Positions 5,977-32,271 of a DNA stretch of 33,174 bases are shown here, piece after piece; the stretch's first letter is position 1, and the number at the start of each line of letters is the position of its first letter. The position numbers and the translations under genes are program-made. The DNA is from a virus (lineage: Duplodnaviria; Heunggongvirae; Uroviricota; Caudoviricetes). A model generated the notes under the pieces. The model was not told where the DNA came from and made no database searches. It saw nothing but the letters and a program-made list of their open reading frames with translations. The stretch is from IMG/VR virus record IMGVR_UViG_2526164596_000016; one strand, written 5' to 3'.

Positions 5977-6921
5977 ATGCCAACAGTAGTTTCACTTTTT
6001 TCTGGATGCGGTGGTTCCGATGCGGGGGTTTTGAGAGCCGGCTTTGATGTGCTTATGGCCAACGATATCTTGCCGTATGCGCGCGATGTTTATATTGCCA
6101 ATCATCCAGAAACTGATTACATATTAGGCAATATTGCTGATGTAACTACTTTTCCTAAATCTGATTTGCTGGTAGGTTGTTATCCATGTCAGGGATTCAG
6201 CCAGGGTGGTGCGCGTAAAGCCGATCGAAAAATTAATACTCTTTATTTAGAGTTTGCTAGAGCTTTAAACAATATAAAGCCTAAAGCTTTTATAGTAGAA
6301 AACGTGTCTGGTATGGTTAGAAAAAATTTTGAGCATTTGTTATCTGACCAGATCAGGGTTTTTACTGAAGCAGGTTATACTGTTTCCGCAAAAGTTTTAA
6401 ATGCGGCTGAATATGGAGTAGCGCAGGAAAGAAAAAGAATATTTATCGTAGGAATCCGTAATGATTTCAAAGTTAAGTACGAGTTCCCTCAGCCAACTCA
6501 TGGGCCAGCAACTGGCGTCAACTATGTTACTATTAAAGATGCTATAGGGCATTTACCTGAATGGCCAGAAGGTGAATTTTATGATATGGGATTCCATTGG
6601 TATTATATGTCTCGCAATCGTCGCCAGGATTGGGATCAAATTTCAAAGACAATAGTTGCTAATGCAAGGCATATGCCGTTGCATCCTGTCAGTCCTCCGA
6701 TGGAGAAAGTAAGAACTGATGAATGGAGATTTGTTGAGGATCGGAGAGCTCGCAGATTCAGTTTTCGAGAGGCAGCACTATTACAAGGGTTTGAGGATCT
6801 AGTGTTTCCAGAAACAAATGCTGCAAGTCTTGGCATGAAATACACGGTGGTTGGTAATGCAGTGCCTCCGCCGCTTTTTGAAGCTGTAACGAAGGCATTG
6901 CCAATAGAATTATGGGATTGA
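5977..6921 (+). CDS. DNA (cytosine-5)-methyltransferase, Dcm-like
   Basis: 314-aa ORF with C5-MTase motifs in canonical order: FSGCGG (motif I, AdoMet), GCYPCQGFS (motif IV, catalytic Cys), ENV (VI), QERKRIFIVG (VIII), RRFSFREAALLQGF (IX), VGNAVPPPLF (X). Strong RBS. Confidence 0.85.
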   Translation: MPTVVSLFSGCGGSDAGVLRAGFDVLMANDILPYARDVYIANHPETDYILGNIADVTTFPKSDLLVGCYPCQGFSQGGARKADRKINTLYLEFARALNNIKPKAFIVENVSGMVRKNFEHLLSDQIRVFTEAGYTVSAKVLNAAEYGVAQERKRIFIVGIRNDFKVKYEFPQPTHGPATGVNYVTIKDAIGHLPEWPEGEFYDMGFHWYYMSRNRRQDWDQISKTIVANARHMPLHPVSPPMEKVRTDEWRFVEDRRARRFSFREAALLQGFEDLVFPETNAASLGMKYTVVGNAVPPPLFEAVTKALPIELWD

Positions 6922-6928
6922 TAAGCTA

Positions 6929-7924
6929 TTAAGGCTCTGGATTTAATGTATAAAGCTCTTCCTCAAATTCGCGAAACCAATCAGAGGTAGTTATCGCTTC
7001 CCATTGGTTTGCCTTATCAAGTAGATATATGATTCTCAACCTATCTAATAATAATACCCCAGCGGTTGCGTGTGTGCTTACCCATTCGCCATTTGCTTCC
7101 CGATAGAAAACAGGCGTGAACATTGTTGATGGATGCTGGAACGCAATTTGGAAATAGGTGGTCAGTTTTAACACGTTAGCCTCTAATGTTTTGCTTGGCC
7201 ACCCTGTTTCTTGTGCACCACATTGACCAAGAATTCCATAGTTGCTAGTTTGACCATCAGGAAATTCCACTGTAGCAATTAGGTCAAACCCGGCATCACC
7301 AGATGTGGGAGCTCTATTTATTTCCCTTGTGTTTAAACTACAAACTCCAAGATCTTTTCCTAAAGTTTGTAGAGCTGTCCGAAGATTTGTTCCATAATAA
7401 TTTTGCCTATCATCGGAGTTAGCATCAAAAATTCTTACGGTGCCATGTGCAGGTAAGAGAGAAATCATTGCTACTTTACATACTCTGGCAAAGCTCTTTG
7501 CCCAACGTTGTGCTGCTCCTTTAATCGACTTAAAGGATCTAAGTCTAGAGCAGCAAAGAAGAAAAACATATATTCGTTGTTGTTGGTTTAGATTTTCTTT
7601 AATAATTATCTCATCACCTGAAATTATAAATGGATATATTTTGCCAAGAGCACTTTCTCTATATTCGAGTTGTGTCCAAACATCTTCGAGTTGCTCTTCA
7701 AAACGATCATTTCTCTCAGCGTCTCCATTAATTTCTTCTTCAGAATTACATTCTTCATCAATTTCTTCAACGCTTGTTATGCCGAATTTTCTTACTGAAT
7801 CTAAATCATTTTTATGTAGTGAGTTACGTCCGGTATAATTAATTACCGTGAGTAACTCGGCTAAATCTGCAAACAAATGAGGAGAGTTGGGATGCATAAC
7901 TCCTACTTCAAAAGTCATCATCAC
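6929..7924 (-). CDS. Hypothetical protein (331 aa) with acidic N-terminal region; candidate effector or nuclease partner
   Basis: ORF in track; GTG/ATG start cluster (GAGGTGATGATGACT) overlaps the upstream frame stop, suggesting translational coupling; converges on the MTase with a 7-bp gap. No motif recognised. Confidence 0.6.
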   Translation of the reverse strand: MMMTFEVGVMHPNSPHLFADLAELLTVINYTGRNSLHKNDLDSVRKFGITSVEEIDEECNSEEEINGDAERNDRFEEQLEDVWTQLEYRESALGKIYPFIISGDEIIIKENLNQQQRIYVFLLCCSRLRSFKSIKGAAQRWAKSFARVCKVAMISLLPAHGTVRIFDANSDDRQNYYGTNLRTALQTLGKDLGVCSLNTREINRAPTSGDAGFDLIATVEFPDGQTSNYGILGQCGAQETGWPSKTLEANVLKLTTYFQIAFQHPSTMFTPVFYREANGEWVSTHATAGVLLLDRLRIIYLLDKANQWEAITTSDWFREFEEELYTLNPEP

Positions 7925-8438
7925 CTCTGCTATTTTTCTCTGCTATTTCAGAACCTATAAGCTTAATATGTTTATTGATTCTTCGTGCTACTTCATGGGC
8001 CTGTCTATCATACTCTACCGTGGCAACCATGCCTGCTGCATCTATCAAAGCTGCTTCAACTTGATAAAGTAACTGGAGAAAGTCCTTAGTAATATCAGAT
8101 GTCAATTGATAGGCAACTGCGAGTGGAGCCCCCATTCGGAATTGCTCCAATGCCTTAGGGCTACTTACAACAGCAGCTAGTTCTCTTAAATTACGTGATT
8201 CTCCTACACGAGTTTTTTTATCCTCGCCTTTTTTATATAACCATTCAGTTAGTTCTTTTATTTCTTTGTTCTTTAAACTCTTAGAATTGATGATAGGATG
8301 ACTTGGTATTGTGTCTCCATCGTCTTCGATTGAAACTCCGACAAACTGGCCTAACCGCTCATCAGCAAGTGCTGTTGATAATACTGAAAATTTAATCGTT
8401 TCTTCATCTAGCTTTTCAATACCATAAAAATCATTTTT
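7908..8438 (-). CDS. Open frame continuing the ParB-like gene after a -1 shift (C-terminal extension or frameshifted fragment)
   Basis: Hand translation: the frame is open from stop TAA (8439-8441) down to 7908 but has no ATG/GTG/TTG before 8150; an extra A in the A7 run (plus-strand T7 at 8434-8440) would fuse it to the ParB-like ORF. Confidence 0.35.
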   Translation of the reverse strand, partial: KNDFYGIEKLDEETIKFSVLSTALADERLGQFVGVSIEDDGDTIPSHPIINSKSLKNKEIKELTEWLYKKGEDKKTRVGESRNLRELAAVVSSPKALEQFRMGAPLAVAYQLTSDITKDFLQLLYQVEAALIDAAGMVATVEYDRQAHEVARRINKHIKLIGSEIAEKNSRGDDDF

Positions 8439-9028
8439 TTAATGATTTCATACACCGCTAAAGCGTCTAGGTTACGCTTGATATGATCCCTACGACTGCC
8501 AATAGCTCTGGCAACCTCATAGTAGCGTAGCATTGGATCCAGATTTGCATTGGTATAATCAAAAAGCTGTTTAATATATCGAGCTTTTGATAAGGGTTCC
8601 CATTGTTTGACACCAGTAATATGTCTGAAACCAAGGTACGGAAGAATCTCTTCTCTTGTTTGGCGCTCAATGACAGGAACACGATCGACCGTATGTTTTG
8701 CATTTGATGCAATTTCTCGTAGTCGAGCACTTGGATTTTCACATAGTGTCGGATCGCGTAATAATTTGACCGCGGATAGGCGACGGTTTCCTTCAACTAC
8801 AATGTACTTCCCCGGCGCTCCACTATCAGGAATGACAATCAATGGTTCTCCAGGGAAAAAACCATTTTCCGCAATAGCACTCATTAGGTCTTCGATAGAT
8901 GTTGAGGTTGCTATGTAGTTAATCATTCCCAATTGGTCACGAGACACGCCTTCAGGAAGTCTTGGGTTTTCTGTGTCAAGTTCCAAATCATCTAGCGGAA
9001 CATAAAGTATTTCTGAATCAGCAATCAT
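8408..9028 (-). CDS. ParB/Srx-like nuclease-domain protein (N-terminal part)
   Basis: Start taken at MIADSEILYVPLDD (ATG 9028, SD GGAG 6 nt upstream). Contains LELDTENPR and YIVVEGNRRLSAVKLL, the hallmark GxRR arginine motif of the ParB N-terminal fold. Terminates just after an A7 run. Confidence 0.7.
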   Translation of the reverse strand: MIADSEILYVPLDDLELDTENPRLPEGVSRDQLGMINYIATSTSIEDLMSAIAENGFFPGEPLIVIPDSGAPGKYIVVEGNRRLSAVKLLRDPTLCENPSARLREIASNAKHTVDRVPVIERQTREEILPYLGFRHITGVKQWEPLSKARYIKQLFDYTNANLDPMLRYYEVARAIGSRRDHIKRNLDALAVYEIIKKMIFMVLKS

Positions 9029-9075
9029 CTGGATCTCCGTTGAACATGTCCACGAGAAGGAGCACAAAGTTATTT

Positions 9076-18688: not shown

Positions 18689-18694
18689 AGAGGT

Positions 18695-19252
18695 TTATGA
18701 GTGATTTTTATTTGATGCTTTGTATTCTAAAACCTTCTTATTGGCGTAAAAGAATTTTGTATATGACAGGAATATAACCAGACCTGAAGTGAAATAGACG
18801 AGGGATAGTATTAATAATGCTTTTTTGTGACTGTTATTATCTTTAATCTCCTGACTTAACCATTCGGAGTCCTCCTCGTTTAGCTGTAAGAGCTTATTGC
18901 AGGCGATCTCAGGAAGTGTGTCTTTTATAAATACGTTTTGCAGTCTCTTGCAATCGGCAAGGCTATAAGTTTTATTAAATTCAACTGCTTTATTTTTGAA
19001 GGATAAAAGAACTTTGTCACTATAAACATAGTACATCATGTTTTTATATGGTATGCCTATGGCATCCCTTACTATAACGGATTGTTCGTTGTGTATGTAA
19101 CATGCGAGAAGAATGTAAAAAATACTGGCCAGAATTACAATTATTGTTTTAATTATGTGTGGTGGTTTTGTTATGTCACCCCAGATGCGAGTAAGGAAAA
19201 AATACGATGTTTTTAGTTTTCCATCAATCAGTCCCTGCTGTATCATTCTCAC
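18695..19252 (-). CDS. Moron: small membrane protein (two predicted transmembrane helices), unknown function
   Basis: 185-aa ORF antisense to the tail operon in a visibly AT-rich insert between S and V; hydrophobic segments IIKTIIVILASIFYILLACYI and ALLILSLVYFTSGLVIFLSY. Start codon uncertain. Confidence 0.6.
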   Translation of the reverse strand: MRMIQQGLIDGKLKTSYFFLTRIWGDITKPPHIIKTIIVILASIFYILLACYIHNEQSVIVRDAIGIPYKNMMYYVYSDKVLLSFKNKAVEFNKTYSLADCKRLQNVFIKDTLPEIACNKLLQLNEEDSEWLSQEIKDNNSHKKALLILSLVYFTSGLVIFLSYTKFFYANKKVLEYKASNKNHS

Positions 19253-19561
19253 ATTTTCAATGCCTGATACATTGATTCCGTTAATTATTTTAAATAGTTG
19301 AATGTCGCGCCACTCGCGGTCAAGTCTTTTTAATTTTTGTCTGAATATCCAAAATTGAAATAATGTGCAATAAGCCTCATAAGGTTACTTTTACCAAAGC
19401 TAAAAAATGCTAATACTGCAAAGCTACAAAGGAAAAAACGATTAGCCCCCACACATTAGTCACATTATAGCTGACCATTACGCTCTCCTTGAATGTTGTC
19501 TGGTAGTTCTACAAATGAATCCAGATAGCATAACTTTTATATATTGTGCAATCTCACATGC

Positions 19562-23347: not shown

Positions 23348-23940
23348 TGAAACCTGTTTTTGATGAAAATGGGCTGACTACAGTGCCGGGTGATATGCGT
23401 TGTTTTTATTATGATGCAGTAACGTCTGAATATTCGGGCTGGTCTGATGAATATATTAATACTGGCGTAAGTATGCCCGCCTGTTCCACTGGTATTGACC
23501 CGGGCGAATACATTCCGGGGAAAGTGGCAGTATTTACGGGTAAGGGATGGAGCCATGAAGAAGACCACCGCAATGAGACTGTTTACTCAATCGAAAATGG
23601 CGTAGCTGTTACAGTGGATTATATCGGTGCCATCAAAGACGGTTATGTCACGCTTTCACCGTTAACGCCATACGATAAATGGGATGGTGAGAAATGGGTG
23701 ACAGATACTGAGGCACAGCATAGTGCCGCACTAGACGCGGCAGAAGCACAGCGCCAGTCGCTGATTGATGCTGCAATGGCTTCCATCAGTCTGATTCAAC
23801 TGAAATTACAGGCCGGGCGGAAGCTGACGCAGGCAGAAACAACCCGACTTAACGCCGTGCTGGATTATATTGACGCGGTGACGGTAACAGATACCAGCAC
23901 TGCGCCGGATGTCATCTGGCCTGAACTGCCGAAGGCGTAG
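23347..23940 (+). CDS. G: Tail fibre assembly chaperone G (expressed orientation)
   Basis: 197-aa ORF immediately after H with a conserved Tfa-type C-terminus (...DTSTAPDVIWPELPKA). Confidence 0.8.
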   Translation: MKPVFDENGLTTVPGDMRCFYYDAVTSEYSGWSDEYINTGVSMPACSTGIDPGEYIPGKVAVFTGKGWSHEEDHRNETVYSIENGVAVTVDYIGAIKDGYVTLSPLTPYDKWDGEKWVTDTEAQHSAALDAAEAQRQSLIDAAMASISLIQLKLQAGRKLTQAETTRLNAVLDYIDAVTVTDTSTAPDVIWPELPKA

Positions 23941-24352
23941 GCCATTCAATATCTGGCGCACCGGAAGTATCGACCAGTTCCAGTGTGTCCAGATAATCCA
24001 GCCACAAATTATATTGCGCCAGTTCCTCACCTTTCAGGCGACCAATCGCCGCTTTACCAGGCCATTGCTTACTGTTTATGTATTCGTTGACCTGATTAAT
24101 CAATTGCTGCTTTTCCAGTTCGGCTGCGGCAATTTGTTCCTCATGAGTTGGCGGTGGAATATCAATCCATGCAGGCATTCCGTCGATGACACCTCTGTAT
24201 TTTCCTTCTGGTGCTTCCTTCATAAATTCGGCGGCAACAGTGTCGTCAATTTCGATTCCATCATCGGGCCATTCGCCGGATTCCTGATAAGCGATTTTAA
24301 GCTCCACAGGGAAAAACGCATTTTTATCGGCACTGAAAATATATTTCTGCAT
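23912..24352 (-). CDS. Alternative tail fibre assembly chaperone (silent inverted copy)
   Basis: 146-aa minus-strand ORF with the same Tfa-type C-terminus (...DTSGAPDIEWPTPSAVQAR), converging on G. Confidence 0.75.
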   Translation of the reverse strand: MQKYIFSADKNAFFPVELKIAYQESGEWPDDGIEIDDTVAAEFMKEAPEGKYRGVIDGMPAWIDIPPPTHEEQIAAAELEKQQLINQVNEYINSKQWPGKAAIGRLKGEELAQYNLWLDYLDTLELVDTSGAPDIEWPTPSAVQAR

Positions 24353-24354
24353 TT

Positions 24355-24711
24355 CTACCGTCCTATCGAAATATAACTGAATCTGTATTGCTGTGAGATA
24401 TCACTGGTTGCCACACGCCACGCTGAATTACTGATATGTTCAAAATTTACAGACAAAACCTGCGGGGCAGGATTCGACGGGTCTGACTGAACGGCATCAG
24501 ACATAACACTGACTGAAACCATCGGCCGATTAGGGAATGGTATAGGGAAATGTCCACTGATAAAGCGGGTCGTGTTTCCTGAAAAAGTGCCAAACTGAAC
24601 AATATATCCACCTGGTAGCCTGAACCATCCCGAACCAGAAGCGAATGCTCCCATATCCGGTATCTGATTATCTCCTGTGCCCACATCCCTTTTCGCCGCT
24701 TCTCCCAAACC
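24355..24711 (-). CDS. Alternative tail fibre C-terminal cassette (promoterless; would fuse to H after inversion)
   Basis: Minus-strand frame begins ...VGLGEAAKRD..., sharing the GLGE junction with H; the crossover dinucleotide sits at codon positions 2-3 in both copies, so inversion keeps the frame. Confidence 0.7.
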   Translation of the reverse strand, partial: GLGEAAKRDVGTGDNQIPDMGAFASGSGWFRLPGGYIVQFGTFSGNTTRFISGHFPIPFPNRPMVSVSVMSDAVQSDPSNPAPQVLSVNFEHISNSAWRVATSDISQQYRFSYISIGR

Positions 24712-24725
24712 AACGTTTATGAAAA
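24700..24725. repeat. hix/gix-like inversion site (right), read on the minus strand as TTTTCATAAACG TT GGTTTGGGAGAA
   Basis: Read directly; right half identical to the left site, left half close to the hix half-site as recalled. Confidence 0.6.
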
Positions 24726-24780
24726 TGCAGAGATAACGGCTAACTGGCATCATCTCCGGTTTTTATTCAGGGGGATGATC

Positions 24781-25374
24781 ATGCTTATTGGCTATGTACG
24801 CGTGTCAACAAATGACCAGAACACGGAATTGCAGAGTAATGCGCTGGAGTGTGCAGGATGTGAGCTGATTTTTGAGGATAAAATCAGCGGCTCGAAGTCC
24901 GACAGGCCGGGGCTGAAAAAACTGCTCAGGACACTATCGGCAGGAGACACGTTGGTTGTCTGGAAGCTGGACAGACTGGGGCGCAGTATGCGGCATCTCG
25001 TTACGCTGATAGAAGAGTTGCGCCAGCGTGGTGTGAATTTCAGAAGCCTGACTGACAGTATTGATACCAGTACCCCAATGGGCCGTTTCTTTTTTCATGT
25101 CATGGGTGCCCTGGCTGAAATGGAGCGAGAACTCATTGTCGAGCGGACACGCGCAGGACTGGAAGCGGCCAGAGCCAAAGGTCGTATTGGTGGCAGACGA
25201 CCGAAACTCACCGCGAGAGAGTGGGAGCAGGCAGGACGGTTGCTGGCTGCGGGGGAATCTCGTCAACGTGTGGCGCTGATTTTTGATATTGGCCTGTCCA
25301 CGCTCTATAAAAAATTCCCCTCATCAGCGACAAAGAATAAATTGTGTCATCCCTTAGCCAACCGGGACAAATAG
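24781..25374 (+). CDS. Serine DNA invertase, Hin/Gin/Pin/Cin family
   Basis: MLIGYVRVSTNDQNTELQ...DTLVVWKLDRLGRS...GRFFFHVMGALAEMERELIVERT...GRIGGRRPKLT: the serine recombinase catalytic core and C-terminal HTH, strongly resembling Gin as recalled. Confidence 0.9.
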   Translation: MLIGYVRVSTNDQNTELQSNALECAGCELIFEDKISGSKSDRPGLKKLLRTLSAGDTLVVWKLDRLGRSMRHLVTLIEELRQRGVNFRSLTDSIDTSTPMGRFFFHVMGALAEMERELIVERTRAGLEAARAKGRIGGRRPKLTAREWEQAGRLLAAGESRQRVALIFDIGLSTLYKKFPSSATKNKLCHPLANRDK

Positions 25375-25433
25375 CCTGACATCTCCGGCACAACTGAAAA
25401 TACCACTCACCCATTAACCACGGAGTTAAACGG

Positions 25434-32163: not shown

Positions 32164-32189
32164 TCCCCCACATGATGTGGGGGTTTTTT
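32164..32189 (+). terminator. Hairpin CCCCCAC-ATGAT-GTGGGGG followed by T7; rho-independent terminator of uncertain (phage or host) origin
   Basis: Read directly upstream of fieF. Confidence 0.55.
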
Positions 32190-32271
32190 TATCCTCAATT
32201 TGCCTGCTGCTTAATGCATTGCAGATGATTTGCTTCCGTTATACTAGCGTCAGTTGATAGCGGGAGTATTT

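Follow-up and report, generated by a model that had tools for sequence, protein, structure and literature searches.

The window (the whole stretch of 33,174 bp that was analysed) carries, in P2 defence hotspot #1, a three-gene module that is related to PD-lambda-5 and that consists of the genes for a ParB-like protein, a predicted restriction-type nuclease and a C5 methyltransferase. The gene encoding the C5 cytosine DNA methyltransferase (5977..6921, plus strand) is intact, and its product was recognized by PF00145 (5.5e-65), by TIGR00675 and by the DruM/MTase_II models. It is convergent with the other two genes, which are located on the minus strand: a gene encoding a partner protein of 329 aa (6929..7918), with a predicted winged-helix domain and a predicted nuclease domain of the restriction-endonuclease fold, and the ParB-like gene itself (7908..9028). 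The partner gene, with its ATG, reaches 11 nt into the end of the ParB-like gene, an arrangement that suggests translational coupling of the two. Conserved residues of the partner include D208, D212, D221, E237 and K243.

As assembled, the ParB-like gene is split. The reading frame that starts at ATG 9028 (preceded by GGAG at 6 nt; an alternative in-frame TTG is found further upstream, at 9067) ends at the TAG at 8410-8408 and thus covers 8408..9028 on the minus strand. Its product of 206 aa comprises the ParB N-terminal domain and the beginning of a helical domain, and its last 8 residues (MIFMVLKS) are out-of-frame. Direct reading confirmed what the sequence-only reading had described, namely that this stop lies 25 nt past a run of seven A residues (A7, T7 on the plus strand; 8434..8440, minus strand), and that the -1 frame has no stop from 8438 until a TGA ending at 7908 (7908..8438, minus strand, 177 codons) and has no start codon before 8150. 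In this frame a TAA is located directly upstream of 8438, and the first ATG, GTG or TTG is the TTG at 8150. The chance of finding 177 stop-free codons in a fixed frame at around 40% GC was estimated from the base composition at about 1e-5, and the open stretch is therefore not due to chance; it represents the C-terminal half of the ParB-like gene. When the run is restored to A8 the two parts form one CDS of 1122 nt, encoding 373 aa identical to WP_000559725.1, which in the window is interrupted by a 1-nt deletion. An extra A had been expected to give a fusion protein with the ParB domain at its N-terminus, and it does, with a length of 373 aa instead of the 375-385 aa that had been proposed.

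Comparison with relatives established that the gene with A8 in frame is the norm in related prophages, where the length of the A-run had been named as something to compare. Among 48 complete Escherichia coli genomes that carry the gene, 45 matched the A8 version exactly, one (NCTC8623) has A9, two have an interrupted run and none has A7, and all four IMG/VR contigs have A8. The intact protein WP_000559725.1 is encoded on at least 1000 public contigs and is annotated as a single CDS in the relatives, while the exact 206-aa product of the A7 version (WP_244428397.1) was found on about 8-11 contigs. In the close allele of TW10590/ATCC 8739 the run is interrupted (AAAGAAAA) and the gene is still intact. 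WP_000559725.1 is described as a 'ParB N-terminal domain-containing protein' of E. coli P2-like prophages. Its locus has the same neighbours as the window (the portal gene, the 329-aa hypothetical protein, the C5 methyltransferase and the replication endonuclease), and both are inserted between cpxP and fieF. With one A restored, the sequences of the two genes are identical; the difference is the A7 of the window, which splits the CDS, in place of A8. A scan of the GTDB representative genomes for the context of the run gave no match.

The conservation extends to more distant homologues. About 2000 of them have a length of 359-392 aa as one protein, with conservation continuing right through the junction, and a split gene was found in none of 120 full-length homologues. 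An alignment of homologues revealed invariant residues past the junction (L207, K213, F214, S218-A220, W263 and G276-R279), whereas the two Lys codons at the run are variable in the family (E or K at position 197; D, E, A or S at position 198) and homologues at 86-91% identity, with IIKDN or IIKNN, have no A tract. In line with the earlier doubt that the downstream frame could be an independent gene, there is no start before 8150 and the C-terminus is conserved in 120 of 120 homologues, as part of one protein. We rejected a separate downstream gene on these grounds and also since the junction is located at the end of a helix, within a single fold that was confidently predicted for a homologue of 91% identity. 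This full-length homologue (P0001), modelled with AF2 in place of the repaired 373-aa protein, gave a pLDDT of 91.2 and a pTM of 0.83, so that the type of protein obtained after repair appears to fold as one unit, as had been suggested for the fusion. Foldseek related the fold to ParB, KorB and Noc (probability 1.0, E-value of about 2e-6, 220-275 columns), and in the alignment the nucleotide-binding box GxxRxxA was recognized, with E79-G80-N81-R82-R83 invariant and A86 nearly so. Both the fold and the nucleotide-binding box agree with membership of the ParB/Srx superfamily. The scores stayed below the curated cut-offs of PF02195 (13 bits vs 26.3) and TIGR00180 (33 bits vs 58.45), and a Pfam search of the ParB-like protein and the 329-aa partner yielded no significant domain.

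A further finding came from a census of indels over the 33,174 bp of the window, for which the complete genome of the near-identical O111:H21 strain 15A served as the reference. The window differs from 15A by two substitutions and four one-base deletions, and all four deletions are located in A/T homopolymers. Besides the run in the ParB-like gene, these are a T5 run (T6 in relatives; 19334..19338) and an A6 run (A7 in relatives; 19433..19438), both inside a cargo gene for a protein of 261 aa, and an intergenic T7 run (T8 in relatives; 32184..32190). The fraction of shortened runs rises with run length, from none of 122 5-mers via 1 of 45 6-mers and 1 of 6 7-mers to both of the 8-mers, one of which is in the ParB-like gene and one non-coding; no homopolymer of 8 or longer is present anywhere in the window. 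The three deletions outside the ParB-like gene are shared by none of the complete E. coli genomes. Judged by E. coli mutation-accumulation studies, a ratio of four real homopolymer indels to two substitutions in 33 kb would be far off what is expected of mutation, even for a mismatch-repair mutator. Both substitutions relative to 15A share a CCAGCC motif, which is suggestive of methylation-linked miscalls (a post hoc observation, with an estimate of about 2%).

The same A7 was observed in three data sets of one lineage (NCBI GCA_000250495.2, Logan SRR099150 and Logan SRR099145), and the reads of each must therefore contain it; inheritance, rather than a repeated error, could account for this. 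Apart from the A7 base, two sister drafts are identical to 15A, AIHO01000050.1 over 20,541 bp and SRR099145 over 10,584 bp. Both deletions in the 261-aa cargo gene are missing from AIHO01000050.1, where the gene encodes 261 aa as compared to 185 aa in SRR099150, and these two deletions are therefore sporadic. Some of the other contigs with A7 are noisy assemblies, one (L015) having five further homopolymer deletions in 3.4 kb and another (L016) many indels. A7 was also found in two or more distinct prophage backgrounds with data of uncertain quality (L011 and L017), and it recurs in L014. The closest complete genome to L011 (SRR9324333) is only 98.3% identical, too distant for an error census.

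Observed directly are the missing base, its uniqueness compared to the relatives, and indels that are confined to homopolymers, depend on their length and are all deletions. The frameshift is most likely not a real feature but an ordinary gene from which one A is missing in a run of eight, and we consider it probable that the base was lost by under-calling of the homopolymer, a technical cause that we infer from sequence comparison. The normal gene encodes a single protein of 373 aa, with A8 on the sense strand read as AAA AAA AAT (Lys-Lys-Asn), and one A was dropped in the assembly, most probably by a sequencing chemistry or base-caller that under-calls long A/T homopolymers; the stop at 8408-8410 and the start-less frame of 177 codons both follow from this one absent base. 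The pattern is the one expected of an artefact, with indels that are restricted to homopolymers, rise with length and go in one direction, and with an A7 that is absent from near-identical assemblies of high quality. Tracts of A8 are also genuine slippage hotspots, which is a point against an artefact. The alternative of a real and recent slippage from A8 to A7, fixed in the lineage as an inactivating deletion, is unlikely, though it comes second among the readings. The ParB-like protein would then be truncated at residue 198 and the defence module disabled with the methyltransferase kept, and the expression of the downstream nuclease would probably be lowered because the 11-nt start/stop overlap no longer couples translation. 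It would account for the presence of A7 in three near-identical data sets, independent Logan assemblies among them, for its recurrence in the other backgrounds (L011, L014 and L017) and for the intact ORFs of the methyltransferase and the 329-aa partner. A familiar way for RM-like modules to decay is to lose the nuclease arm, which may be toxic, and to keep the methylase. A real mutation is less easily reconciled with sister drafts that have zero substitutions relative to the intact 15A over 20.5 kb, with three more homopolymer-only deletions in the window (a sister draft lacks two of these), with the shortening of both 8-mers, one of them non-coding, and with the absence of A7 from all 48 complete genomes. 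The sequence-only reading had listed a homopolymer sequencing error and a recent inactivating mutation among its alternatives, and these two fit best. In place of raw reads, whose showing A8 would by that reading make this a simple assembly error, the nearest evidence comes from near-identical genomes, in which the run is A8, and from the further homopolymer-confined deletions of the window.

Its other proposals, a -1 ribosomal frameshift, transcriptional slippage and phase variation, found no support in the comparisons: the relatives have A8 in frame, a close allele is intact with an interrupted run, the Lys-Lys codons are not conserved and 0 of 120 full-length homologues are split. We regard it as highly improbable that the poly-A run is a contingency locus, at which slipped-strand mispairing would switch a defence module between ON (A8) and OFF (A7 or A9). 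Three tract lengths (A7, A8 and A9) do exist in public data, and a gene in a defence hotspot, such as this one, could benefit from being switched reversibly, but A8 predominates very strongly (at least 1000 contigs, compared to 8-11 with A7 and one with A9; 45, 0 and 1 of the complete genomes for A8, A7 and A9, respectively), so that ON and OFF are not both common, and the tract is not maintained, being interrupted in TW10590/ATCC 8739 and absent at 86-91% identity. An A tract of 8 nt is also short for a contingency locus. Programmed recoding, by which the A7 allele would yield the full-length protein because either the ribosome slips by -1 on T AAA AAA A or the RNA polymerase slips, is hardly credible at all. 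In its favour, such a ribosomal slip at the Lys-Lys codons would give exactly the wild-type IKKNDF, and an AU-rich hairpin begins 9 nt downstream of the run (-16.3 kcal/mol, z = -2.3; a fold as good was obtained with 2 of 200 shuffles). The in-frame gene is the norm of the family and no orthologue requires recoding, the heptamer is non-canonical in that a T precedes the run, and neither the slippery codons nor the two-frame arrangement are conserved in orthologues. An Rfam search at the run detected no frameshift element, and efficient slippage of the E. coli RNA polymerase requires runs longer than A7. A mixed scenario seems very unlikely, in which A8 is a real and recurrent slippage hotspot that switches off the ParB-nuclease-methylase module of P2 prophages in minority lineages, in which the DEC15-like lineage and SRR9324333/ERR8007796 truly have A7, and in which hairpin-aided ribosomal or transcriptional slippage at a low level might provide a leaky rescue.

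The site is reminiscent of the -1 frameshift in dnaX (A AAA AAG, a hairpin and an early stop), with which it shares a poly-A Lys-Lys site and a hairpin at a spacing of 9 nt. In contrast to the dnaX site, the run varies among orthologues, and these need no shift to stay in frame; moreover, the shift in dnaX leads to an alternative protein, whereas here a shift would be needed for the normal one. One may speculate that the intact A8 allele produces a dnaX-like short isoform by -1 slippage (IKKK-stop, 199 aa). The resemblance to the homopolymer errors of 454, Ion Torrent, PacBio CLR and Nanopore extends to their restriction to homopolymers, the steep dependency on length and the fact that all are deletions, and, as is seen with flow-based and long-read platforms, the result is an apparent frameshift in AT-rich cargo genes. 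A difference from such errors is that the same A7 occurs in three related data sets. A frameshift next to a homopolymer in an AT-rich prophage cargo gene calls for a comparison with relatives before it is read as recoding or phase variation.

The relation of the module to PD-lambda-5 is of moderate interest independently of the frameshift. PD-lambda-5 consists of a ParB/HEPN protein and a methyltransferase, and was identified as an anti-phage system in a prophage of ECOR7 (Vassallo et al. 2022, PMC9519451); its authors described it as RM+Abi in a compacted form. Four of the systems in that paper are located in the P2 hotspot, in the interval between the replication endonuclease and portal genes (PMC9519451); the module in the window occupies the same hotspot as these four. 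The main text of Rousset et al. 2022 does not mention a ParB-type system. The 25 best PADLOC matches of the methyltransferase were DruM, MTase_II, DrmMII and orphan-MTase models, with PD-Lambda-5_B not one of them, and the 329-aa partner had no match in PADLOC. The repaired ParB-like protein matches the PD-Lambda-5_A models (best 6e-29, residues 9-282) and both systems include a DNA methyltransferase, but the match covers just the N-terminal 280 residues or so (profile positions 7-277 of 440). Towards the C-terminus the two proteins differ, and a HEPN domain was not found in this part of the ParB-like protein. Unlike the two-gene PD-lambda-5, the module contains three genes, the extra one encoding the 329-aa winged-helix/restriction-endonuclease-like protein. 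As a relative of PD-lambda-5 it is uncharacterised, and it is found widely among the Proteobacteria.

As assembled, the ParB-like gene is an ORF of 206 aa on the minus strand, running from an ATG at 9028 (with GGAG 6 nt upstream) to the TAG at 8410-8408, with a run of seven A residues in the sense strand (A7, 8440-8434) and a -1 frame that is open for 177 codons, from 8438 to a stop ending at 7908. This frame has a TAA directly upstream and no start codon before the TTG at 8150. Addition of a single A to the run yields a continuous protein of 373 aa and, since all of these features could be read directly, the interruption described in the sequence-only reading was correctly observed. An open frame of 177 codons at 40% GC has a chance probability of about 1e-5 (a rough estimate from base composition) and, judged from the sequence, is not fortuitous. 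The split most likely reflects a homopolymer error at the level of the assembly; at most, a recent slip of a trivial kind has turned the gene into a pseudogene.

That this is one gene broken at the A run is borne out by its relatives, which carry a single CDS with eight A residues (A8). The DNA of the ParB-like region was found in 48 of 5426 complete E. coli genomes, and a 106-nt probe bearing A8 matched at 100% in 45 of these; A7 occurred in none of the 48. All four IMG/VR contigs examined also carry A8. The other three genomes were NCTC8623 (A9, with the gene split) and TW10590 and ATCC 8739, which differ from the probe by substitutions only (ATT AAA GAA AAT, I-K-E-N), so that the run is interrupted and the 373-aa ORF is still whole. 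In the A8 genomes one CDS of 1122 nt is annotated (WP_000559725.1, "ParB N-terminal domain-containing protein"). Homologues (about 2000) occur across the Proteobacteria, and the best 120 of these are 359-392 aa long with a query coverage of 91-100% (91% for the 339-aa P0002). In an alignment of 119 of these 120 (query coverage 95-100%) conservation runs unbroken over the junction, with L207, K213, F214, S218-A220, W263 and G276-R279 invariant downstream, and the residues encoded by the run vary (E/K at 197 and D/E/A/S/K at 198). Among the homologues compared, which are full-length over the junction, there was no split orthologue and none that ends at the TAG of the window, the finding that would have spoken for two separate genes.

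The structure model points the same way. A full-length homologue (P0001, 91% identical), modelled with 119 sequences in place of the repaired protein, gave a single confident fold (mean pLDDT 91.2, pTM 0.83), which bears on the question, raised earlier, whether the fusion folds as one unit. The GxxRxxA box is kept in the homologue alignment as E79-G80-N81-R82-R83...A86. The junction (around residue 198) falls where helix 180-198 ends, within the fold, and Foldseek matched the model to ParB, KorB and Noc with probability 1.0 over 220-275 columns, comprising the N-terminal nucleotide-binding domain and the central helical DNA-binding domain and thus extending beyond the truncation point. Given both observations, the 206-aa product would be a broken protein and not a natural domain.

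When aligned end to end with the near-identical complete genome of E. coli O111:H21 strain 15A (NZ_CP077477.1), the window showed only two substitutions and four gaps of one base. Each gap is a base missing from the window within an A/T homopolymer: at 8434-8440 in the ParB-like gene (T8 to T7), at 19334-19338 (T6 to T5), at 19433-19438 (A7 to A6) and at 32184-32190 (T8 to T7), an intergenic site near the ogr/fieF end that holds the only other 8-mer of the region. By their length in 15A, 2/2 8-mers, 1/6 7-mers, 1/45 6-mers and 0/122 5-mers were shortened. None of the other three deletions was shared with any complete E. coli genome; every best-matching one has T8 at 32184-32190, and best matches had extra bases (253 versus 251 nt in 463 genomes and 172 versus 171 nt in 786 full-length matches). 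The deletions at 19334-19338 and 19433-19438 break the reading of a hypothetical gene of 261 aa (18690-19478, minus strand, 34% GC) at the second P2 cargo locus; the gene thereby passes through all three frames, and it is whole in 15A. Both substitutions (2286 and 23377) are C-to-T-type transitions within the hexamer CCAGCC/GGCTGG (33 copies in the window; chance about 2%, estimated post hoc), and could be methylation-linked miscalls or 5mC deamination.

Several other contigs carry A7. Logan SRR099150 matches the window at every position over 19,028 bp (100% identity), and thus comes from the same strain or data. AIHO01000050.1 (NCBI draft GCA_000250495.2) and Logan SRR099145 are one SNP from the window and equal to 15A over 20,541 and 10,584 bp, respectively, except for one missing A. 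The 261-aa cargo gene is whole in AIHO01000050.1, by its gene table, and cut to 185 aa in SRR099150, so the deletions around 19.3 kb are not shared even within the lineage. The further A7 contigs include clearly error-laden assemblies, one with five additional homopolymer deletions in 3.4 kb (L015), one with many indels (L016) and one, Logan SRR18681730, in which the C5 methyltransferase gene is split. In the last, errors cluster at two TGGCCA sites within that gene (aligned to window 6059-6060 and 6562-6564), which may hint that the target motif of the methylase disturbs base-calling.

Of the explanations offered earlier, homopolymer error fits best, and we consider it probable that the missing A was under-called, because every indel is a deletion within a homopolymer and their frequency depends on run length, the sister drafts lack any substitution relative to 15A, the extra deletions are sporadic and other sequences universally carry the longer runs. 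Given E. coli mutation-accumulation data, even a mismatch-repair mutator would not be expected to gain four genuine run indels for two substitutions within 33 kb. A real, recent inactivating deletion seems unlikely; the main argument for it is that A7 recurs in three related data sets of the window's lineage and is thus present at the read level, which fits equally a systematic under-call of the 8-mer on one platform and a mutation inherited in the lineage.

Recoding or phase variation at the run, both raised earlier, are together very improbable. A -1 slip on the two Lys codons would restore the wild-type IKKNDF, and an AU-rich 12-bp hairpin (8355-8424, minus strand; -16.3 kcal/mol, z = -2.3) starts 9 nt downstream of the run; however, the heptamer is non-canonical because a T precedes the run, no Rfam element was found at the site, and the run, in frame as A8 in most relatives, is not conserved, and no relative requires it. 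Speaking against phase variation are very skewed tract lengths (by exact protein look-up, the intact product on at least 1000 contigs, the A7 product on 8-11 and the A9 product on one) and the loss of the tract in close alleles. A -1 slip on the intact A8 allele would end translation at IKKK-stop, for a product of 199 aa; with the hairpin downstream this layout resembles dnaX. The likeness is speculative, and the run is not conserved in close alleles.

The window, a P2-like prophage of E. coli, sits between cpxP and fieF, and its ParB-like gene is flanked by the replication endonuclease gene on one side and the cos/portal end on the other, an interval known as "P2 defence hotspot #1" (Vassallo et al. 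2022, PMC9519451, with citation of Rousset et al. 2022). Elsewhere (around 23350-25380) a serine recombinase (invertase-type) gene adjoins oppositely oriented tail-fibre and tail-fibre-assembly genes in the annotation of a relative, which suggests an invertible host-range segment in this prophage. Two genes follow one another in the same direction, the ParB-like gene leading; the ATG of the second, encoding a partner of 329 aa (6929-7918, minus strand), overlaps the end of the first by 11 nt, and a C5 cytosine methyltransferase gene (5977-6921, plus strand; PF00145, 5.5e-65) is convergent. These three genes have a GC content of 40% versus 52% for the whole window, and A/T runs at least 6 nt long are twice as dense in them. 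The partner had no match in Pfam, NCBIfam or PADLOC, and is confidently predicted from modelling to combine a winged-helix domain with a restriction-endonuclease-fold nuclease. It has about 250 homologues (Entero-, Beta- and Gammaproteobacteria), many on contigs equal in size to those bearing ParB-like homologues, which suggests that both genes travel together. We infer that the three genes form a restriction-modification-like defence module, in which the methyltransferase would shield self DNA, the winged-helix/PD-(D/E)xK partner would be the putative nuclease and the ParB-like protein a putative nucleotide-dependent DNA-binding or loading partner. In PADLOC, the repaired protein matched PD-Lambda-5_A models (best 6e-29) over its first ~280 residues only (profile 7-277 of 440). 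PD-lambda-5 of ECOR7 was described as "ParB/HEPN, methyltransferase", and by its authors as a compacted prophage RM+Abi system, the cloning of which required an mrr-deleted host (Vassallo et al. 2022, PMC9519451). The putative module described here is a three-gene relative of PD-lambda-5 and, by architecture, not a member of it.
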